Assembly: GCA_050298055.1 (NCBI GenBank)
Contig: JBNKTL010000012.1
Coordinates: 34,855-98,854 of the forward strand
Length of the DNA stretch: 64,000 nt
Reading direction: 5' to 3'
Source of the DNA: Spirochaetota bacterium
Lineage (GTDB): Bacteria > Spirochaetota > UBA4802 > UBA5550
Position 1 is the stretch's first letter, and every line of letters starts with the position of its first letter. The translations under genes were made by a program, and so were the position numbers. The notes below the pieces were generated by a model. The model was given only the letters and a program-made list of their open reading frames with translations, had not been told where the DNA came from and did no database searches. Positions 27,145-42,416 of this stretch are shown piece after piece.

Positions 27145-28218
27145 TTATATCTGCACCCGTGCCCCGATCTGAATATTAATGTCCTTTTTGTTTCTCAGGT
27201 TGACCATGGATTCGGCGGTTACCCTTATGAGGGCAAGGCTGATATCGAAGCCCACAATATAAACCGGTATGACAAGGTGGGGAGTATACTTGTTTTCAGA
27301 CACAAGGGTAACATTTGCAATCTGTCCCGATGGATTGATAGCCGGTGCAGTATAAACCGGATCATCGGTGGTTGCGGTCCCGCTGGCATCAACATCCACG
27401 TTGAAATACCCGAAGTTAAAAGAGGTCCCCAGGCCTGTGTAGAATCCGAAGATCCAGAAGAGGTCCAGGTAGGCGATAAGGCTTGAGGATACGGAGACCA
27501 TGTACCACTTCACCTTTGCCGAATACTGGGGCGTCATGTCAACATCCACATCCATTGTCGTGCCGCCGCCTGTGTCTACCTCGATACCATCCATGGGATA
27601 TTCGATCTCACCACTTACCTTCGCAACCCCGTTAAGCATATCCGCCCCTAGGCTTACTGTCACTCCTCCGAAATTAAAGAGGCCGGGGAGGATGGTCTGT
27701 TTCGATACGAAGTTATAGCGTATCTTTCCCCCGATTGAATAGAGGTTGAGCTTTTCAATGTTGAGATATGACTTATCAAGGGGGGGCTGGTACATTCCCG
27801 AACTGAAAGTAAAAAACCTGAACATGATGTCGAGACCCTTGCCCATCCCCAATCCGAAATAGGCCGCGGGACTGATGCCTCCCGCAGGTTTTATATTATC
27901 GTTCTGACTCTCATCATCAAAATATTCCATATTGGTAAGACCCGCGCTCACCGATGCCCCCACGAAAAAACTGGGGAACCCTCCCAGGTAGGCGCTTCCC
28001 ACCGGGTATCCGCCCATATTTGCCAGGGCAAATCCATCGGCAACACCGGGCCCGAAGGTATCAAGGGTATCCTGAATGAGGCTTTCTACCTCGGCGAGCC
28101 CCAGAGTGGAAAAATCATAACCACCCCCGCTGGCATCGGTGGCAGTAATGGTTGTTCCCGAATAGAGAGGAATATTCAGAAACATAACAAGAGTCACTAT
28201 AATCGCAAGAAGTTTCAT
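27145..28218 (-). CDS. Exported protein, probable outer-membrane beta-barrel/surface protein
   Basis: Signal peptide MKLLAIIV...; amphipathic Gly/aromatic beta-strands; C-terminal IGARVQI. Confidence 0.55.
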   Translation of the reverse strand: MKLLAIIVTLVMFLNIPLYSGTTITATDASGGGYDFSTLGLAEVESLIQDTLDTFGPGVADGFALANMGGYPVGSAYLGGFPSFFVGASVSAGLTNMEYFDDESQNDNIKPAGGISPAAYFGLGMGKGLDIMFRFFTFSSGMYQPPLDKSYLNIEKLNLYSIGGKIRYNFVSKQTILPGLFNFGGVTVSLGADMLNGVAKVSGEIEYPMDGIEVDTGGGTTMDVDVDMTPQYSAKVKWYMVSVSSSLIAYLDLFWIFGFYTGLGTSFNFGYFNVDVDASGTATTDDPVYTAPAINPSGQIANVTLVSENKYTPHLVIPVYIVGFDISLALIRVTAESMVNLRNKKDINIQIGARVQI

Positions 28219-28438
28219 TTGTATAATATACACATTTTTTCTCTTTGAAAGGCAATAAATCATTAAATAAATCGTGTTTAATATATATTGGCCGGTGTGA
28301 TCATGTCAATGCAAATTCCCTCATGGGAAACCGGTGCACCTGTTCTTTTTCTGCTTGTTAAAATGGAAATATTATTAATAACTATACCGGGAACAGGTAC
28401 AAAATTATTTCCAGGAGTGTATAAAAGGAGTGACAGAT

Positions 28439-30523: not shown

Positions 30524-31585
30524 TTATGCTTCTGCAGTCTTCTTCTCCTTTGGAGCTTCTTTTGGCTCCTGTTCGGCTACAGGCATCCCCACGGCCTTTT
30601 TGATCTTTATCTCTATCTCTCTGGCCATGGAGGGGTTTTCGGAGATATACTTCTTGGAATTCTCTCTTCCCTGGCCTATTCTCTCCTCTCCGTAGGAATA
30701 CCATGTTCCGGCTTTCTTGATGATATCGTGTTTTACTCCCATATCAAGAATGCCTCCCTCCCGGGAGATCCCTGTTGCGAACATCATGTCAAATTCCGCC
30801 TGCCTGTGGGGAGGCGCGAGTTTGTTTTTCTTTACCTTGACCCTGACCCTGTTGCCGATGGCGTCCTCACCGCTCTTCAGGGTCTCTATCTTTCTGATAT
30901 CGAGCCTTACCGAGGAGTAGAACTTCAGGGCGTTACCGCCGGTTGTGGTTTCCGGTGAACCGAACATAACACCGATCTTGTGCCTTATCTGGTTAATAAA
31001 GATAACGCTTGTCTTGGATTTGGAGATGACACCGGTGAGCTTTCTGAGCGCCTGGCTCATGAGCCGTGCCTGGAGACCCATGTGTGCGTCACCCATCTCT
31101 CCGTCTATCTCGGCCTTGGGGACAAGGGCGGCCACGGAGTCTACTACGATTACGTCTATGGCATTTGATCTTACCAGGGCCTCGGTTATCTCCAGTGCCT
31201 CTTCACCGGTGTCCGGCTGAGAGATGAGAAGCTGTTCGGTCTTTACTCCGAGCTTTGTGGCGTATGTGGGATCAAGAGCATGCTCCGCGTCAACGAATGC
31301 CGCTACGCCGCCCCGTTTCTGGGCCTGGGCAATAACATGAAGGGTGAGAGTGGTCTTGCCGGAGGATTCCGGCCCGTATATCTCGATGACCCGTCCCCGG
31401 GGAACACCGCCGATTCCCAGGGCTATGTCCAGTTCAAGTGAGCCTGTGGGGATGGATTCGATCTGGATCTTGGCATTCTTATCGCCGAGAAGCATAATGG
31501 AGCCCTTGCCGTGCTGCTTCTCTATCTGCATCATCACAGATTCGATTGCCTGGTTCTTTTCGTTGAGTTCTGTCTGCTTGCTCAT
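30524..31585 (-). CDS. recA: Recombinase A
   Basis: [24 protein letters not shown]. Confidence 0.99.
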
Positions 31586-31609: not shown

Positions 31610-31727
31610 TAATTATTAAGCTATATGACTATAATAAATCTACTTCCTGTAGATAGTAAGAATATGTTCCCGCCGCCGAAGGCGTCGGGAACATATCAGT
31701 TGTCTTTTATACATAACCAAGTAGTAA
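31610..31727 (-). mobile_element. MITE-like repeat, copy 4 (immediately upstream of recA)
   Basis: ATATGTTCCCGCCGCC-GAA-GGCGTCGGGAACATAT (31662-31696); end CATAACCAAGTAGT. Confidence 0.65.
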
Positions 31728-31920: not shown

Positions 31921-32061
31921 GTAACTACTCAGCTATATAGCTAAAAATATACATATTTAATAAGATATCAACAATGTGTCTTTGCCGCCTTCGGCGGCGG
32001 GGACACATCACTTATCTTTTATTTATTAACATGTCTATTTTATACATTGCTGAGTAATAAC
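31921..32061 (-). mobile_element. MITE-like repeat, copy 6
   Basis: GTAACTACTCAGCTA...ATGTGTCTTTGCCGCC-TTC-GGCGGCGGGGACACAT...GCTGAGTAATAAC. Confidence 0.75.
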
Positions 32062-32251: not shown

Positions 32252-33844
32252 TTACCATATTTTTGGCCATCCGCCTGTATTGCCGTGGCAGCCAATGCCT
32301 AAATCTCCCCTGCTGCATGATGATCCGTCAAAGCTTATATTATATTGTGCTTCAAGCCATGTTGTGTCAATAAGGCCGGTAGTGTCATCTGTTCCATTAA
32401 CATGATTATCCGAACTGCTCTGTTGATTATGGCATTGATCACAGGTAATTCCGTTATCCACAACATGCATGTCATGACGATTGTCCTGAGAATCATCCTC
32501 ATGACAATCCGAGCAAATGAGCCCGGTCCCGGAATAATACCAGTCCGGTGTCTGCTTCCCTCCGTGGCAGCCGGTGTCGGTGCATTTACTGTACGAAATC
32601 GTATAGTCCCAGGTCCCCGTATAAGCCCCAAAAAGGATTGATACGACACTTACGGGAGAACCCGCAGGATTTCCGCTGTTCCATGTAAAATTGATGTGAG
32701 TCGTTGCATTGTTATAATTGTTATGGCACGTTGTGCAGGTATATCCCCGGGCCGGGTATTCGTAGTGCTTTGAATGTGACCCGCTTGATATAAGATCTCT
32801 TTCAAAAGGATCATAGGATGTTCCCGATACATGGCAATCAATACAGTTTATACCCGATCCCCCTGTCCAGACAGGCGAACCGGTGCCGTGGCAGTCGATA
32901 TTTGAACAGCCGGGATCATTAAATGAAGCATCGGGATCGTTGAAAAAACTGATTTCCAGAGAATCCCCGACAGGTTTTAATTCATGATGATCATCCCCCA
33001 CACTTCCGTCTCCGTCGTCGTGACAGTACCCGCACTGGTCACTGTAAGAGAGAAGATGCTCGGAATGGGCCCCCTGTGTTAAATTTACACTGTCTCTGTA
33101 ATGGCATGTGCCGCATGCACCGGTCCCGGCATTCCCCCAGACCGGAGTTATATCCGTGCCCTGTGCTGCGGGATCAAGAGAACTTCCGTGGCAGACAAGG
33201 TTTGAGCATTCGCCGGCACTGTATACACCTGAAGGGTTTCTTGTATTAAAATTTACCGTTATGCCGGTATCGTCAATGTCGTCGTTGTGTGCGGCAGTAT
33301 CCCTGTAGCCTGCATGGCAGTGCTCGCATGTCTGGCCGGTCCTTATATGAGCGGAATGGGACCCTGTTGAGGGATTGTTTGGTGAACCTTCATAATGACA
33401 TATGGCGCAGGTCATTTCTGAAGCGGAATACCAGTTTATCGATATATGGCAGTTTATGCTGTTGCAGGTGTTTGATGCAGTATCAAAACTACCGTTTGGG
33501 TTGTCGGCCGGGTTAAAGCTTATGATGTTTCCGGCAGCATCTTTGTCCAGTCCGGAATCATAACCGTTTACTATTCCATTCTTGTGAAGGGAATTGTTAC
33601 CATAGTTATAGTGACAGTCTGTACAGCTTATATCCTGAAGGGAGTTGAGATGAGAAGCATGACTTCCGCTTGTTGGAACATCCCTGTTTATTACCGTTGA
33701 GGGATGGCAGGCTTCGGCATCACAGCCGGTTGACATATCAGACAGATTGTTGATATTACTGCAACTGCCGAATGTAAGAATTGCCAGTAAAAAAACACCT
33801 GCTGTTGTCAATCCAAATGAAATACTTCTGCAATAAAAATACAT
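32252..33844 (-). CDS. Multiheme c-type cytochrome lipoprotein (CxxxxCH/CxxCH family), 15 heme motifs
   Basis: Lipobox-like LTFGSC; counted 9 CxxCH, 5 Cx4CH and 1 Cx8CH. Confidence 0.88.
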   Translation of the reverse strand: MYFYCRSISFGLTTAGVFLLAILTFGSCSNINNLSDMSTGCDAEACHPSTVINRDVPTSGSHASHLNSLQDISCTDCHYNYGNNSLHKNGIVNGYDSGLDKDAAGNIISFNPADNPNGSFDTASNTCNSINCHISINWYSASEMTCAICHYEGSPNNPSTGSHSAHIRTGQTCEHCHAGYRDTAAHNDDIDDTGITVNFNTRNPSGVYSAGECSNLVCHGSSLDPAAQGTDITPVWGNAGTGACGTCHYRDSVNLTQGAHSEHLLSYSDQCGYCHDDGDGSVGDDHHELKPVGDSLEISFFNDPDASFNDPGCSNIDCHGTGSPVWTGGSGINCIDCHVSGTSYDPFERDLISSGSHSKHYEYPARGYTCTTCHNNYNNATTHINFTWNSGNPAGSPVSVVSILFGAYTGTWDYTISYSKCTDTGCHGGKQTPDWYYSGTGLICSDCHEDDSQDNRHDMHVVDNGITCDQCHNQQSSSDNHVNGTDDTTGLIDTTWLEAQYNISFDGSSCSRGDLGIGCHGNTGGWPKIW

Positions 33845-33927
33845 CTCCTGTTTCCAGGGGCAGAGAGTTTATAAAAAATTCTACCCATTAATAATACAAT
33901 TATAAGGGATTTTTATGACAAAAAACT

Positions 33928-33955
33928 AAAAAAAAGCGCGGATGAAATCCGCGCC
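33928..33955 (-). terminator. Rho-independent terminator after the large cytochrome gene
   Basis: GCGCGGAT-3nt-ATCCGCGC followed by a T8 run on the minus strand. Confidence 0.75.
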
Positions 33956-33959
33956 TGTG

Positions 33960-33993
33960 TTAAAAGATCACCTGTTAACAGGTGATCTTTTAA
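33960..33993. repeat. 34-bp perfect palindrome
   Basis: TTAAAAGATCACCTGTT|AACAGGTGATCTTTTAA. Confidence 0.8.
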
Positions 33994-34014
33994 AAGTTGC
34001 TCATAATGAATTAT

Positions 34015-37000
34015 TTATCTATTGTAGGCCGGTTTGTTGCTTGTATCATCATTTTCTTCTTTCATCTGACTTGCCCCGAATATTGATTTGTACCATCCGG
34101 ATTTAGGATCATGGTCCTCGTTGTGGCAGGCAACATAACATTTCCCTGAAGAGTAATCATAATAGAGATCTCCGGCAGCCCCTGATTTACCTGCAGGTGA
34201 GGTGTCATACCCGAACCTTATATTGATCCACCTGTTAACATGACGGCTGCTTAAATCTGTTCCCGTGTTGTACCTGTACTTAATGGTAACAGACGTATCG
34301 CTTTCTCCGCTAGAATGTGCCGCAGTAGCGTGGCAGTGTTCGCATGATCCGTAGGTGTTGTGTTGGGTTTCATTATAATGGTCTTTCCCGGATGCATTGT
34401 TGTGGGGTTGGGGCTGGTTTGTCCCGTTGTTGTGACAGTTCGTGCAGTTAAGAGAAACCTTGGATCCGCCTCCCCATATAACAGTGGCGATCCCGGGACC
34501 TCCCGTGTTGTCTGGGGCCGTGCTTGTCAGTTCCCAGCCGTTGCTGTGGCAGTACGTTGCCTGGCAGGTCCTTTCCTGAAAACCGGCACCCGGTGTGCTG
34601 CTGGAGAATGCTCCGGTAAATGACTTGTAGAATGCAAAGTTACGCGTTCCGTTGGCGTGAAGGGTTGTATTGGGTTTTTTTGTCCCGGTTTCATATGCTC
34701 CCCCGAGACCGTCACCGGTTGACAAGGTCCCGTCATAAACGCCGTTGTGACAGAACCCGCAGGGATATTCATAACCATTTTCCGTATAAAGTCCGGAGTG
34801 TTTTGAATGGCTGTCACTATTCCAGGTATCTGCCGTGGGAATTCCAAGGCCTGCGTTATTCCCCTCTCCATGACAGTCGCCGCATGATCCACCAGTCCCG
34901 GTTATCCAGTTGGGGTTATTACCGGTGTTCCCTTCGGGCCATGAAGTGTTCCCGCTTCCAAAGTCTCCGTGGCAGTATGTATTTGAACAGACATTTGCCG
35001 TGTAGGAGGGTGTCACGCCGGTATACTGGCCGGCCAGTCCCGAAAAGTTCAGGGTCGGTGAAAAGTTAACATGGTATGTCCTGTATGATGTGTTAAATGA
35101 TACGCTTCCCTCGGTACCGTCGGCTACCCCGTTGTGACAGAGGTTGCAGTTATAGCTGTAGTTTCCGGAAGTTGAATCCGTATGCCTGTCATGGGAGCCG
35201 TAGGCGGCATTTGTCGGTGCATTGTCGTGACAGTCACCGCAGGCGCCTCCTGTTCCGGCATTCCAGTTGGCCGTAGCATTGAGGCCGCCGTTGAAGTCAC
35301 CGTGACAGTAGGTGTTTGTGCAGTCCTTGGTCGAAGTGTTGTAGTTTGCCGTCCCCGGTCCCTGGTCCGCATTTCCGTCGAAGGATATATCCCTCTGGTT
35401 GTTTGCGTGGTTTGCGATGCTCACCAGTAAGACCCCGCCGTTCTCGGTACCGGACGCTTCTCCGTTATGACACTTTGAACAGTCGAAACCGTATCCTGTC
35501 CCCGCAAGGGAATCGGTATGCCTGTCGTGGCTCCCGTAGCTGGAGTTCTGAGGCGCCAGGTCGTGACAGTCACCGCAGGCGCCTCCGGTGGTATTGTTCC
35601 AGTCCCCGGCATTACCTGTTGTTCCGCCGGTAAAGTTACCGTGGCAGTAGAAGCTGGTACAGGTCATTTCCAAAGATGTATAGACGCCGCTGGGGTTCCA
35701 TGTATCCGGAACAACTGTCAGCATCCCGTCTGCGTGTCCCGCTTTTAAGGTGGTATTATCGGACTCGACCGTTTCATCGTGGCATTTTGAACAGCTGTAG
35801 CTGTAATTTTCACTGCCGGAAATATGTTTCCTGTGTGCTCCCGTTGTCATTGATGCCGACGTCGCGTCGTGACAGTTACCGCAGGTGACCGATCCGGGAC
35901 CTCCTCCCGCAGCCAGAGTCCATTTAGGGTCGTTATTCCCGGCAGAGGATGAACCATAGAATCTCCCCCAGTCGTTACCTCCCGTTGAGTTCCCGTGACA
36001 GTAGAGATTGGTGCACTGTTTGGTCCCCGTATTATAACTTCCGCTGGGATTGAGGCTGTCAAAAACCACACTCACATCTTCTGCGCCGATAATACCGTTT
36101 ACATGACCGGAAAATCCCCCGGAATGACACCTGTCACAGGAATAGGAATAGGGCCCCGATGTGTGAGTCGCATGGGCCCCGGATGTTCCGGGAGTAGCGG
36201 TATGGCAGTCCCCGCATTGGGCAGTTGTGCTGTCAAGCCAGTCCGGTGTTGAGTTATTTCCTGCTAGTGTTCCCGAGAAGTTCCCGTGACACCATGAATT
36301 TGTACATGTCCGGGTCCCGGAGGCCCAGGCTGTGCTGCCGGAAACAATATCACCTGTTTTGGATGCCAGGTCAGTATTCGAAGTCTTGAAATTCACATCT
36401 GCATTTACTCCGCTGTTATCGATAGAGAAATTCGCATGGCGGATAGTCCCGTAGGAACCCTGTGTGCTGGTTGAGGTAAAACCCGTATTGGTATCGGTCC
36501 CGTAGTTATGGCAGGCGTCACAGCTTTCGATGGAATTGGCATTGCCGAAATAGGTTGCCGATGAGGATGTGTGTTTCCCGTGTGTTTTGGACGAGTAGTT
36601 ATTGGTCGGACTCCCGTGACATGAACCGCAGGCGGAAGTTGATGAATCCTGCCAGGTGGGGCTGAACGCGTTTCCCGGATTTGTGTTTGACGTACCGTTG
36701 TATGTTACCCGGGGGAAGTTTCCGTGGCAGTAAACGTTGGTACAGGTTTTCGATGCGTTGTCAAAAGACGGCGATCCGTTGGTATTAGCCGGATGAGAAT
36801 ATCCGAAAGTAACATCCTTCGTGAAATTAACATGATCTACAGGTGCTGAAGCGTTTGTATATCCGCTGTGGCAGTAACCGCACTGGTCCGGGTATTGAGC
36901 CAGGTGCTTCGTATGCTTTACCGATGTGGGATCTGTTCCGTTTGCCGGGTGGCATGAGCCGCATATTGCAGTACCGCTCCAGGCGATAGCCGTGTTGTTC

Positions 37001-38040
37001 CCCCCCGTGAAGTTTCCATGGCAGTATGTATCTGAACATATTATGTCATTGTATTGTCCCGTGGAAGGATCGAAAGACCCCCCCTCGGCGGTGCCCAGGG
37101 ACCCCCGGGGATAATTAAAAGTTATATTGATCTCTCCGTTTGCGTGTGTTGATGATCCGCTGGTAGAACTGCCGTGACATGCACTGCATGCCGCAGCCTC
37201 ATTGGCATAACCTGCCGCTATGAGCATGTTGAGATGACTCCCGTGGGTCGGGTCTCCTGAATTCGCAGGGTTTCCGTCTCCATCAGCGGCGTTTCCGTGG
37301 CAGGGATTTGACGCGCAGCTTACACCGGTATTGCTGTTAAATTCAGGTGTCGTATTGCTGTTAAAGCCGGGTTTCCCGTTTCCATGACAGGTTGTAGAGA
37401 CACAGGTTCCACCCTGTGTACCGGGAGTATATGATCCCTCCGGGTTTGTTGATGGGTTAAAAATAACTGAAGTATTCCCGGAATCAACGGTTCCGTCGGC
37501 ATGGGTGGATGTATCGGTATAGCCATAGTGGCAGTCGGTGCAGACTTTTCCCCCGTCTGTAATGTGGGCCCGGTGTCCGCTGCCGGTCATTGGGTCCGGG
37601 CTGTTCAGATCATTATCGGAGTAGTGGCAGATAGTCGTACAGGTTTCTGCAGCCGGGGCATCCCAGGCAATAGACCCGTGACATGCCATATTCCGGCAGG
37701 TCTTTGTGGATACGTCAAAGCTTCCGTTGGGATTCTGATTTTTATCAAAGAATATTATAAGTTTATTGTTACTGCTGGAATCCTTTGTCCCGTTTTTATG
37801 AAGGGCTACATTGCCATATGAATTATGACAGACCTTGCACTCATACCCCTTTTTCCGGACATGGACAACATGTCTTGCGTCGTTTGAGGGATAGACTTCT
37901 TTCAGAGATGTCGATTGATGACATTCACCGGCCGCACAGCCTGCATCAGTTGTATCCAGATTTTTCCTGACCTTACTACAACCGATTATCGCTACAGCAG
38001 CAGACAAAATTATTGTTGGAATAATATATTTTTTTACCAT
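34015..38040 (-). CDS. Very large multiheme c-type cytochrome lipoprotein (CxxxxCH/CxxCH family), 33 heme motifs
   Basis: Signal MVKKYIIPTIILSAAVAIIGC; counted 19 CxxCH, 12 Cx4CH and 2 Cx3CH in 11 repeats. Confidence 0.9.
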   Translation of the reverse strand: MVKKYIIPTIILSAAVAIIGCSKVRKNLDTTDAGCAAGECHQSTSLKEVYPSNDARHVVHVRKKGYECKVCHNSYGNVALHKNGTKDSSSNNKLIIFFDKNQNPNGSFDVSTKTCRNMACHGSIAWDAPAAETCTTICHYSDNDLNSPDPMTGSGHRAHITDGGKVCTDCHYGYTDTSTHADGTVDSGNTSVIFNPSTNPEGSYTPGTQGGTCVSTTCHGNGKPGFNSNTTPEFNSNTGVSCASNPCHGNAADGDGNPANSGDPTHGSHLNMLIAAGYANEAAACSACHGSSTSGSSTHANGEINITFNYPRGSLGTAEGGSFDPSTGQYNDIICSDTYCHGNFTGGNNTAIAWSGTAICGSCHPANGTDPTSVKHTKHLAQYPDQCGYCHSGYTNASAPVDHVNFTKDVTFGYSHPANTNGSPSFDNASKTCTNVYCHGNFPRVTYNGTSNTNPGNAFSPTWQDSSTSACGSCHGSPTNNYSSKTHGKHTSSSATYFGNANSIESCDACHNYGTDTNTGFTSTSTQGSYGTIRHANFSIDNSGVNADVNFKTSNTDLASKTGDIVSGSTAWASGTRTCTNSWCHGNFSGTLAGNNSTPDWLDSTTAQCGDCHTATPGTSGAHATHTSGPYSYSCDRCHSGGFSGHVNGIIGAEDVSVVFDSLNPSGSYNTGTKQCTNLYCHGNSTGGNDWGRFYGSSSAGNNDPKWTLAAGGGPGSVTCGNCHDATSASMTTGAHRKHISGSENYSYSCSKCHDETVESDNTTLKAGHADGMLTVVPDTWNPSGVYTSLEMTCTSFYCHGNFTGGTTGNAGDWNNTTGGACGDCHDLAPQNSSYGSHDRHTDSLAGTGYGFDCSKCHNGEASGTENGGVLLVSIANHANNQRDISFDGNADQGPGTANYNTSTKDCTNTYCHGDFNGGLNATANWNAGTGGACGDCHDNAPTNAAYGSHDRHTDSTSGNYSYNCNLCHNGVADGTEGSVSFNTSYRTYHVNFSPTLNFSGLAGQYTGVTPSYTANVCSNTYCHGDFGSGNTSWPEGNTGNNPNWITGTGGSCGDCHGEGNNAGLGIPTADTWNSDSHSKHSGLYTENGYEYPCGFCHNGVYDGTLSTGDGLGGAYETGTKKPNTTLHANGTRNFAFYKSFTGAFSSSTPGAGFQERTCQATYCHSNGWELTSTAPDNTGGPGIATVIWGGGSKVSLNCTNCHNNGTNQPQPHNNASGKDHYNETQHNTYGSCEHCHATAAHSSGESDTSVTIKYRYNTGTDLSSRHVNRWINIRFGYDTSPAGKSGAAGDLYYDYSSGKCYVACHNEDHDPKSGWYKSIFGASQMKEENDDTSNKPAYNR

Positions 38041-38318
38041 CCGAGTTACTCCAAATTTTTTTTTATTTTTTGTGCTGTTAAATATTTTGTATTTTTATAT
38101 TAATTCTTTTGTAAATAAAACCTCCTTAAACCTATAGGGTTAATAGTAAATAATATACAGATTTTGGCAAGTAAAAGTGTAAAAAAATCGTATATCTGAT
38201 ATTATTAATGCGCATAAAATTGGGAATGTATATGATTTATTCACTCATTTTTGCATCTTAATGTAATTGTAAAAGTGATCTTCGATATAATCGCAGATTT
38301 ATGAGGGGTTCTTGTGAC

Positions 38319-38346
38319 AAAAAAAAGCGCGGATTAGATCCGCGCC
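38319..38346 (-). terminator. Rho-independent terminator of leuA
   Basis: GCGCGGAT-3nt-ATCCGCGC plus a T8 run, ~15 nt after the leuA stop. Confidence 0.78.
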
Positions 38347-38360
38347 TTTCTCTGAGTCTT

Positions 38361-39941
38361 TTACGGATAGACCTTCTCTGTGGGACCTTTACCCCCGACC
38401 TTTTTCATATATTCAAGCCTGTTCAGGGCGTCAACATAGGAGAATATGCCGGCAATTGAGATATCGATGCTGATACCCGTCCCTATCACCCTGATCTCCT
38501 TTCCCCTGACTTTTTCGGTAACTGTGACCGAAACTTCGCAGAGTGCATCGGAACCGCCTGTTATGGCGGCAAGGGTGAAGGCGGTAATGACTGATTCGGA
38601 ACCGGTAATTTTTTTTACCGCCTTAATTCCCGCGTCCACACCGCCATTTCCATGCTCCACCTCAAAGGTTTCCCGGTTGTCGTTATAGTGGTCCTTCAGG
38701 GTTACCATGGCCATGGGTGGCGAGAACATCCCGGTTGATATCTGGACATTCTCCACCTTGAATCTCCTCTTGTTCTCTTCCTTAAACATGGCTTCACCAA
38801 GGAGTGCTACCAGGTCTTCGTCAAAGACCTGTTTTTTCCTGTCTGCCAGGTCCTTAAAGTACTTGAAGAACCGGTCAAGCTCGTCCTTTTTCAGCTTAAA
38901 TCCCAGGTCCCTGAGCCTTTCAACAACTGCATGCCTGCCCGAGTGTTTCCCGAGAACAAGCTTCGATTTACTGATACCCACATCTTCCGGTTTCATGATC
39001 TCGTAAGTCATGGAATGTTTCAAGACACCGTCCTGGTGTATCCCGGATTCATGGGCAAACGCGTTGTCTCCCACAATGGCTTTGTTGGGCTGAACAGAGA
39101 TCCCGGTTATTCTTGTGAGAAGCTTGCTGGCTGACATTATCTGCTTTGTATTGATTTTTGATCCGATTTTGTACATGTCGTTCCGAGTCTTGACAGCCAT
39201 AACGATCTCTTCCATGGAGGTGTTTCCCGCCCGTTCACCGATACCATTTATGGTACATTCAATCTGTCGTGCGCCGGCTTCAATTGCCGCCAGTGAATTG
39301 GCGACGGCAAGCCCCAGGTCGTTGTGGCAGTGCACGGAGATTATTGCGCTGTTAATGTTGCTTACGTTGTCGAAGAGGTGTTTGATGATTTTGAAAAACT
39401 CTGTTGGTATCGTATAGCCCACTGTGTCCGGTATGTTTACCGTAGTGGCACCTGCTTCAATGACCGCGTGCACTATCTCCGTGAGGTATCCGAGGTCGCT
39501 CCTTGTTGCATCCATGGGAGAGAATTCAACATTGTCAGTATATGACTTTGATTTTTTTACGGCATTAACAGCTGCCTTTAATACCTCATCCCGTGTTTTC
39601 TTCAACTGGTACTTGATATGGATATCCGAGCTGGAGATAAAGGTGTGGATTCTCGGTTTTTTCGCGCCCTTTAAAGCCTTCCATGCAACATCGATGTCCT
39701 TTTCATGGGTCCGTGCAAGTCCGGCAACCTGGGCATGCTTTGCCCTTTCCGATATCCTCTGGACTGCTTCGAAGTCGCCGTCGGAGGTTATGGGGAAACC
39801 GGCTTCAATTACATCAACTTTGAGCCTCTCGAGCTGGTCGGCAATGAGGAGTTTCTCCTCTATATTCATGCTGAAACCGGGTGACTGTTCTCCGTCTCTC
39901 AGTGTTGTGTCAAAAATAATCAGGTTGTCTTTCTTTGTCAT
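38361..39941 (-). CDS. leuA: 2-isopropylmalate synthase
   Basis: DTTLRDGEQ, HCHNDLG, GERAGN, AHESGIHQDG, LGKHSGR; C-terminal regulatory domain; Leu attenuator upstream. Confidence 0.93.
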   Translation of the reverse strand: MTKKDNLIIFDTTLRDGEQSPGFSMNIEEKLLIADQLERLKVDVIEAGFPITSDGDFEAVQRISERAKHAQVAGLARTHEKDIDVAWKALKGAKKPRIHTFISSSDIHIKYQLKKTRDEVLKAAVNAVKKSKSYTDNVEFSPMDATRSDLGYLTEIVHAVIEAGATTVNIPDTVGYTIPTEFFKIIKHLFDNVSNINSAIISVHCHNDLGLAVANSLAAIEAGARQIECTINGIGERAGNTSMEEIVMAVKTRNDMYKIGSKINTKQIMSASKLLTRITGISVQPNKAIVGDNAFAHESGIHQDGVLKHSMTYEIMKPEDVGISKSKLVLGKHSGRHAVVERLRDLGFKLKKDELDRFFKYFKDLADRKKQVFDEDLVALLGEAMFKEENKRRFKVENVQISTGMFSPPMAMVTLKDHYNDNRETFEVEHGNGGVDAGIKAVKKITGSESVITAFTLAAITGGSDALCEVSVTVTEKVRGKEIRVIGTGISIDISIAGIFSYVDALNRLEYMKKVGGKGPTEKVYP

Positions 39942-41286: not shown

Positions 41287-42354
41287 TCATAAGATAAAGT
41301 ATACCCTGAGTACAATTATTTTAGCGGTAATATCTGAATATTCCGCTTTTATCTCCCGTGTACGTGTTGTATTATACTCGTTATCGTAGTATGACTGTTT
41401 GAACCTGATCTCTTCCGGGAGATTGTATTTTCTGAGGACCCGGTAGTCATAACTTAAACTGATTCCCGTTCTTATCTTTGTGAAATAGAGCCCGGTCCCG
41501 ATCCCCAGACCGTATGAGCCGAGGTATGAAAAACTGAACGGTTCTGAAAACTCTTCGGTTGTTTCAGACAGGTTGAACCTGAACTTTGTCTCTCTGTATT
41601 CTGCCAGGTTGCCGAATACGGACATGTCGATACTCCAGATAAGCCAGCTTTTTGCGGCGGCAAACCGGAAGCCTGCTTTCAGGTCCAGGAAAAAGGTGTT
41701 GAATTCCGCTTCATACTCAAGGGAATAGACCCTTTCCCGGGGGATCTCCTCCCCGGTAAGGGGATCGGTGATAATTCCCGGGATGATGTTGTCGTCGGAA
41801 ACATGTGATTTCTCCGAAAAGTCCCGGACATCAATTGTTCTCTGAAAAAAGCCCAGTTCGGGAGAAATAAAGAAAGACGTTCCGAATCCCACGGTTGATA
41901 TGCTGAACCTGTTTTCCGTATAGAGCGCTTCTCCATTGGCAACTTTATCTTGATTCTCATTGTAGATATTTACAGTTGTCTCTCCTGAAGAATAGGTATA
42001 GTTCAGTGAAAAAGGGAAAGGTGTTATTAGCCCTTCGGTCTCTTTGTTCCAAATAAGAGTTAACTCATCATTCTTTTCGTTATCCGGTAAGGTTGTTTTG
42101 GCGGCGGTGCCTTTTTGATAAAAGTTCAATGTGGAGCGGTCTTTCGCGGTTATCTTTACGACATTCTCAAGGGGAATTTCTGTTTGAGAACCGTTTTTCT
42201 TTTCTTTAATGATGAGACGGTTATTTATAATTTCGTATTTTCCCGCACTGATTTTCCTGCCGTCTTTCAAATAGATCATATCGGCAAAGAGAGTAAGGGG
42301 CAAATATATTAAAGATAAAATACAGAGTGTAAGAACTCTACCGGTTGCTTTCAT
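41287..42354 (-). CDS. Hypothetical exported protein, possible outer-membrane barrel
   Basis: Signal peptide, ADMIYLKDG N-domain, amphipathic strands ending in VYFIL. Confidence 0.55.
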   Translation of the reverse strand: MKATGRVLTLCILSLIYLPLTLFADMIYLKDGRKISAGKYEIINNRLIIKEKKNGSQTEIPLENVVKITAKDRSTLNFYQKGTAAKTTLPDNEKNDELTLIWNKETEGLITPFPFSLNYTYSSGETTVNIYNENQDKVANGEALYTENRFSISTVGFGTSFFISPELGFFQRTIDVRDFSEKSHVSDDNIIPGIITDPLTGEEIPRERVYSLEYEAEFNTFFLDLKAGFRFAAAKSWLIWSIDMSVFGNLAEYRETKFRFNLSETTEEFSEPFSFSYLGSYGLGIGTGLYFTKIRTGISLSYDYRVLRKYNLPEEIRFKQSYYDNEYNTTRTREIKAEYSDITAKIIVLRVYFIL

Positions 42355-42416
42355 TATATTAATCATTTCATCCGGTTGTCCGCACAATGTAAAACACTTT
42401 TATCCTGTGTTTATGT

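Follow-up and report, generated by a model that had tools for sequence, protein, structure and literature searches.

Cytochromes built from CxxxxCH/CxxCH repeats are common among metal reducers, and for this family we found neither a clearly similar solved structure in a PDB sequence search nor an assigned electron entry point. We analyzed two genes for such proteins, P0001 and P0002, in a 64,000-nucleotide stretch of DNA (the window; positions 34,855 to 98,854 of contig JBNKTL010000012.1, assembly GCA_050298055.1) from a Spirochaetota bacterium. The pair are real, intact cytochromes of a known family in an under-studied host. We consider it probable that each is a dispersed copy of the outer subunit, a lipoprotein, of a porin-cytochrome conduit of the type found on contig C4 of the same genome, and that they would serve as its extension arms at the outer surface. 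The parts and the design principle of such a system are already known, and what is unusual here is best read as the modular, dispersed set of outer subunits.

The outer cytochromes of described porin-cytochrome (Pcc) clusters carry 1 to 15 typical motifs, along with atypical CX3-15CH motifs (PMC4245776), compared with 3 to 78 hemes and scattered extra copies in the family studied here. In gene layout, the conduit resembles the Pcc cluster of Ignavibacterium album (IALB_1837/1838), with a barrel-like gene, a large periplasmic cytochrome (400 aa and 14 hemes in I. album [PMC4245776]; 414 aa and 16 hemes here), and an outer cytochrome. The main text of that report makes no mention of spirochaetes. 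By analogy, the layout is also like that of Shewanella MtrCAB with OmcA. The outer cytochromes of Shewanella are exported by type II secretion (the T2SS). The large window protein scored over the cut-off of PF22113; in contrast to MtrC and OmcA, neither window protein matched the decaheme family TIGR03507 or has ten CxxCH hemes. The cytochrome c7 repeat wire GSU1996 consists, like the window proteins, of concatenated triheme modules (PF14522 was over its cut-off), and a weak PDB match (E 7.5e-5) was to 3ov0, the GSU1996 entry. The window proteins differ from it by their lipid anchor, longer units, and Cx4CH third motif, and the His order of their unit may be a circular permutation of that in c7. 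Also close are the TIGR01904/PF09698 cytochromes of Geobacter and relatives, which presumably include OmcA, OmcG, and OmcH as TIGR01904 matches. Long single-chain wires that are extracellular and lie outside porin operons were predicted in PMC11492766, where a 27-heme wire cluster, OmcA (GSU2884), OmcG, and OmcH are discussed. Very large single-chain cytochromes are expressed on electrodes or iron oxide, the reported maximum being an 86-heme protein of Desulfuromonas acetexigens (PMC12133095), which the largest relative found here, with 78 motifs, approaches in size.

Both window proteins passed the family check that had been suggested from the sequence: TIGR01904 (cut-off, 27) gave 245.3 bits in 10 stretches of the large protein and 67.5 bits for the small one, and PF09698 (cut-off, 21.7) gave 63 and 23.3, respectively. 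A Geobacteraceae match (P0019) shows the same three-heme unit pattern. Compared with the Geobacter-type proteins, the window proteins are spirochaetal and almost pure repeat, and their family is tied to one barrel family. None of 59 PDB matches (E up to 1) was named as an OmcS, OmcE, or OmcZ filament. We counted 33 heme motifs in the large protein (19 CxxCH, 2 Cx3CH, and 12 Cx4CH) and, in the small one, 14 (9 CxxCH and 5 Cx4CH) with an extra Cx8CH at its terminus, as against means of 0.49 and 0.30 motifs, and a maximum of 4, in 2,000 residue shuffles. The sequence-only reading had counted 48 hemes; 33 and 14 of them stood, and the 48th is doubtful, since its motif is Cx8CH. The same reading was right about the 11 and 5 repeats of a three-heme unit, about the lipoprotein signals of two paralogous genes (lipoboxes IIGC at Cys21 and FGSC at Cys28), and about the three or so spare His per unit: we found 3, 3, 3, 4, 3, 3, 3, 3, 3, 3, and 6 in the large protein (total, 37) and 3, 3, 4, 3, and 3 in the small one (total, 16). 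Units span 87 to 146 aa and show a repeated Cx4CH...W...CxxCH motif. The two proteins are about 28% identical over 545 aligned positions, and their reading frames are uninterrupted. The proposed role as a modular heme chain for electron transfer is plausible. A structure prediction for residues 355 to 1034 of the large protein (alignment of 22 sequences) gave a pLDDT of 42.7 and a pTM of 0.23, and searches with this low-confidence model in Foldseek and VIA-align gave no match.

Relatives of the large protein were found at 18 loci. The best 6 (43 to 57% identity) are titled Leptospirales, Spirochaetia, Spirochaetes, or Spirochaetota, and the other 12 (26 to 35%) are titled Zixiibacteriota, Ignavibacteria, or uncultured. 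Full-length relatives at 46 to 57% identity occur in four spirochaete records, and one relative reaches 85% over the searched region; named Desulfobacterota and Myxococcota matches are about 25 to 30% identical, versus 52 to 56% for most of the top tier. Family size ranges from one unit with 3 hemes (L069 and L050) to 26 units with 78 motifs. The latter, a 2,803-aa lipoprotein (L008:1130-9541), lies in tandem with a 30-heme paralog at a locus without a barrel gene.

We then looked into the paralogs elsewhere in the host genome. Contig C4 encodes, on one strand, 12-heme and 32-heme paralogs, a 441-aa likely barrel, and 16-heme and 8-heme cytochromes; this Pcc-type clustering of barrel, periplasmic cytochrome, and outer cytochrome recurs in relatives and is not found around the window pair. 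Over 648 aligned positions, the 32-heme paralog shares 42% identity with the large window protein, whose units 3 to 5 pair with units 8 to 10 of the paralog. Recent duplications are visible within the 32-heme protein, in which unit 3 is nearly identical to unit 5 and unit 4 to unit 6. The 441-aa protein has no heme motifs and is a probable beta-barrel: it ends in an aromatic C-terminal motif whose Phe is conserved in 90% or more of 16 sequences, a weak profile match (E 0.0026) supports this identity, and one of the nearest Atlas clusters, at 0.98, is auto-named "Porin family protein." None of the 25 barrel homologs found was named as a Geobacter protein.

The cytochrome family travels with this barrel. 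In the genomes of 41 relatives, TIGR01904 was over the cut-off in 6 and a barrel ortholog was present in the same 6, the control CcmF being matched in 35. Across 401 genomes of the phylum, the barrel was found in 13, the first-unit profile described below matched in 13, and 12 had both; none of the 388 barrel-negative genomes had a full first-unit match. At 13 of the 14 barrel loci that we read, a family cytochrome lies at most two genes away (two are fragments at contig edges), and the triad of barrel and cytochromes also occurs at L006, L007, L012, and L014, four loci that were found via the cytochrome. The one-unit proteins are likewise linked to the barrel, L069 being adjacent to it and L050 two genes away. 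In G009, there is no family gene at the barrel locus and seven are carried by other contigs, so that a partnership in this genome could only be in trans.

A second line of evidence concerns the first unit. We built a profile from the first units of 14 barrel-linked proteins from other genomes, and it scored unit 1 of the large window protein at 77.0 bits (next best unit, 42.5) and unit 1 of the small one at 116.3 bits (next best, 45.6). Unit 1 ranked top in all 15 test proteins (4 of the host's own and 11 dispersed, from few genomes; the 78-heme protein was represented by its first 12 units), and a second-unit profile from 11 of the 14 proteins was not position-specific. The first units of the host's four proteins form a clade (98/95), and distal units sit on long branches. 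In 29 of 29 aligned family N termini the lipobox Cys is invariant, as are three motifs, three spare His, and one Trp of the first unit, a set that would fit bis-His ligation. All family members, from 3 to 78 hemes, start with this same lipid-anchored first unit, and the window pair has retained it. Their far ends vary: beta-helix and choice-of-anchor Q domains were over the cut-off in some relatives, and propeller matches were weak. Constancy at the membrane and variation at the opposite end would fit the pattern expected of interchangeable surface arms.

Several points weigh against this interpretation. Genomes with both barrel and family are kin and not independent, and we therefore claim no p-value; some of the sequences behind the first-unit profile came from barrel loci, and the search of the 401 genomes scored only nine candidates per genome. 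G263 has a barrel gene at a contig end and no unit match, in G098 a partial unit match comes without a barrel match, the G046 barrel contains an internal stop, and in G317 no periplasmic cytochrome open reading frame (ORF) is listed beside the barrel; TIGR01904 alone detected five of nine further barrel-positive genomes. The 441-aa protein had no family match over the cut-off and no PDB sequence match, and its strand-alternation score (11) was no better than that of shuffles (9.4 +/- 2.4), by a heuristic that failed to separate barrels from controls. First-unit conservation could stem from export or folding needs instead of docking, no quinol oxidase of the NapC/NirT/CymA type was matched in the host genome, and we infer the surface location, binding, and electron transfer of the window proteins from sequence. 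Folded without an alignment, the barrel candidate gave an uninformative pLDDT of 31, and a complex prediction of barrel, first unit, and three hemes scored 0.19 against a mark of 0.32, which is no answer either way.

We propose the following scheme for the window pair as arms of the conduit. The proteins would be exported by Sec, lipidated, and loaded with heme by the Ccm system, and then delivered to the surface, perhaps via the T2SS; genes for Ccm and T2SS are present in the genome. The conserved first unit, held at the membrane, would accept electrons from the cytochrome inside the barrel, and electrons would hop along the bis-His hemes of the repeat units toward the variable far end. Extrapolating from a published 27-heme, 350-Å model, the arms might reach about 43 nm (large) and 19 nm (small). 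A candidate link to the menaquinone pool is an HmcBC-like pair with a 5-heme cytochrome. Electron flow outward, to minerals or partner cells, seems to us the likelier direction, ahead of uptake. More tentatively, and with the balance leaning against it, the family could form a plug-in system in which one conduit serves genome-wide interchangeable single-chain arms that share a three-heme docking module, the number of units (3 to 78 hemes, up to about 100 nm by extrapolation) setting the reach and the far end setting the target.

The host genome (4.7 Mb, 199 contigs; estimated completeness, 98.3%; contamination, 0.8%) encodes machinery that would support this scheme. A ccmA/B/C/E/F-like cluster lies with heme synthesis genes on contig C5, with scores below equivalog cut-offs, which answers the question of a cytochrome c maturation system; a T2SS is encoded on contig C7 (GspD, E, and G over the cut-off). 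MenA, menB, and a menG/ubiE gene were over the cut-off, and the genome gave no MqnA or MqnD match for the futalosine route, the men route being present instead. There are four NrfD-type matches, one of them in the HmcBC-like pair beside the 5-heme cytochrome. With 18 acyl-CoA dehydrogenase matches, Fdh-N, Fhs, and CdhD, and no DsrA match, the host looks like an anaerobic fatty-acid oxidizer in need of an electron sink.

A different view of the same genes places them on the other side of the membrane, as periplasm-facing lipoprotein wires or electron stores. They would supply the conduit from its inner side or act as a buffer between reductases of the periplasm and the quinone pool. Barrel co-occurrence and first-unit conservation would suit docking from either side, the genome lacks a CymA-type oxidase match, and many wire cytochromes are predicted to be periplasmic (PMC11492766). 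We nevertheless regard this arrangement as unlikely, given a family of 3 to 78 hemes, which extends far beyond a periplasm of about 170 Å (PMC11492766), the extracellular-type domains at the end of some relatives, and the fact that the third gene of porin-cytochrome clusters usually encodes an outer-membrane cytochrome (PMC4245776).

The genomic setting bears on a further alternative. The sequence-only reading had noted no adjacent porin, oxidase, or ccm gene, and the cytochrome pair is indeed flanked by leuA and recA. Of 10 family relatives that we read, 5 have recA immediately after leuA and 2 have it one to several genes farther along; in the other 3, recA was outside the stretch fetched. 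None of the 10 has a cytochrome at this site. This arrangement in relatives without the cytochromes shows that the window pair is an insertion into a spirochaete backbone. A terminator-like hairpin element precedes each cytochrome gene, as a near-copy with about 40 downstream bases, and these two sites are the only ones in the genome that match the hairpin pattern. With a hairpin between them, the genes probably do not form one simple operon, and the repeated element suggests a duplicated cassette with separate control. A promoter scan was at chance level (18 versus 13.9 +/- 4.1). Read depth across the locus was even (about 10 to 12, save spikes at repeats) in a run that may be the source sample; one contig of this run covers recA and the small gene, and no listed piece spans either junction of the large gene by 31 bases. 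We saw no sign of a chimeric contig and rejected that reading on the even depth, the contig joining recA and the small gene, and the conserved flanks.

A lineage-specific insertion with a duplicated flanking element, long branches of distal units, and the atypical Cx8CH end of the small protein are also what one might see if the pair were surplus or repurposed paralogs, serving as surface adhesins or heme stores or being little-expressed duplicates, with no real role in electron flow. We give this little credence, as the frames are intact, the spare His set is kept in every unit, and the full-length spirochaete relatives, as well as the one at 85% over the searched region, occur at the identities given above. 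Surface wires that need no barrel and pass electrons among themselves or to shuttles, as in the porin-independent chain first proposed for the pair, are the least probable reading: the lack of a barrel gene near the window pair, the location of the 27-heme cluster of Desulfuromonadia outside porin operons (PMC11492766), and the partial unit match of G098 favor them, and they are set against a family that travels with a barrel and periplasmic cytochrome pair encoded by the host as well, a family gene near 13 of 14 barrel loci, and no full first-unit match in the 388 barrel-negative genomes.

Coordinates of the cytochrome pair, its flanks, and the C4 conduit (window positions unless a locus is named)
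Feature	Position	Strand	Remark
33-heme lipoprotein cytochrome c (P0001)	34015..38040	-	1341 aa, 11 three-heme units
14-15-heme lipoprotein cytochrome c (P0002)	32252..33844	-	530 aa, 5 units, last motif Cx8CH
Signal peptide and lipobox, large protein (Cys21)	37978..38040	-	From sequence
Signal peptide and lipobox, small protein (Cys28)	33761..33844	-	From sequence
Conserved first unit, large protein (residues 35-133), candidate conduit-docking module	37642..37938	-	Unit profile; docking inferred
Conserved first unit, small protein (residues 41-145)	33410..33724	-	Unit profile
Terminator-like hairpin and downstream repeat, between the two cytochrome genes	33889..33956	-	
Second copy of hairpin element, after leuA, upstream of large gene	38288..38347	-	
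leuA (2-isopropylmalate synthase-like), upstream flank of insertion	38361..39941	-	
recA, downstream flank of insertion	30524..31585	-	
Core conduit locus	L002:47-9112 = G000:C4:125046-134111		12- and 32-heme lipoproteins, likely barrel, 16- and 8-heme cytochromes

The host had been judged spirochaete-like, and this was borne out. FlaA sheath proteins gave three matches in the host and none in 14 control genomes, and the window RecA is 78% and 74% identical to those of two genomes behind loci titled Spirochaetes or Spirochaetia, 65 to 70% to two other spirochaete records, and 65% to a record titled only uncultured bacterium; the leuA-recA backbone agrees. A deltaproteobacterial host was ruled out by the RecA, FlaA, and flank comparisons. 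Tentatively, metabolic likeness would place the host in the class UBA4802. Leptospira-type neighbors are present at window positions 27145-28263 and 41287-42387, as below-cut-off matches to the families Lsa36 and LA_0442/LA_0875.

The remark that this lineage was not known for such electron transfer was overstated. Multiheme cytochrome expression was reported in fatty-acid-degrading Spirochaetota, for which direct interspecies electron transfer was proposed (PMC7382037), and a table of PMC12911419 gives two Spirochaetia taxa as Fe(III) reducers. Our searches of an open-access library turned up no account of porin-cytochrome conduits in spirochaetes, nor of the CxxxxCH/CxxCH repeat family in this group; subscription journals were largely outside this scope, and the supplements of PMC7382037 may list such genes. 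The survey PMC11475568, restricted to RefSeq, has no spirochaete term in three supplementary files, and neither does the main text of PMC12545173, whose supplements could bear on novelty. Our data would extend porin-cytochrome conduits to the phylum Spirochaetota and suggest concretely how the direct electron transfer proposed in syntrophic members (PMC7382037) could work. If plug-in arms exist, fatty-acid-oxidizing spirochaetes could have a direct electron route to minerals or partner cells that needs no polymerized filaments. The genetic pattern is clean, with a single barrel family, a single conserved first unit, and a natural version of just one unit and three hemes, and it makes the question directly testable.

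Other observations concern the conduit genes and their relatives. A small 2-heme protein is encoded directly upstream of the C4 locus, and a 431-aa ORF right after the 8-heme gene (L002:9747-11042) resembles, by eye, a group II intron reverse transcriptase. Near the ccm and hem genes, a second cluster (L003:7825-12015; G000:C5:71824-76014) comprises a barrel, distantly like the C4 barrel (hhalign, 77.6%), a 13-heme protein, and a 6-heme lipoprotein. On contig C24 (L076:1423-3137; G000:C24:58423-60137), a protein of 408 aa that is rich in aromatic residues and has Phe as its last residue is followed by a 4-heme cytochrome, possibly a third small barrel-cytochrome pair. The periplasmic partner varies in modules, with 11, 16, or 21 hemes (L046:2237-3868, L047:10770-12380, and L064:9275-10144). 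At L052:7044-10844 and L056:8793-11981, family members are fused to beta-helix, GEVED-like, and choice-of-anchor Q domains or else to what is probably a beta-propeller.

Two octaheme cytochromes of the tetrathionate reductase family were over the cut-off (L004:9791-11335 and L005:11229-12677). Fdh-N alpha (L072:12872-16054) is encoded by two same-frame ORFs with 48 bases between them, the break probably marking a selenocysteine codon. Finally, GC-rich, REP-like or MITE-like palindromes between the small gene and recA (window positions 31662-31684 and 31974-32008) belong to a genome-wide repeat of about 100 copies that produces read-depth spikes and is unrelated to the cytochrome finding.

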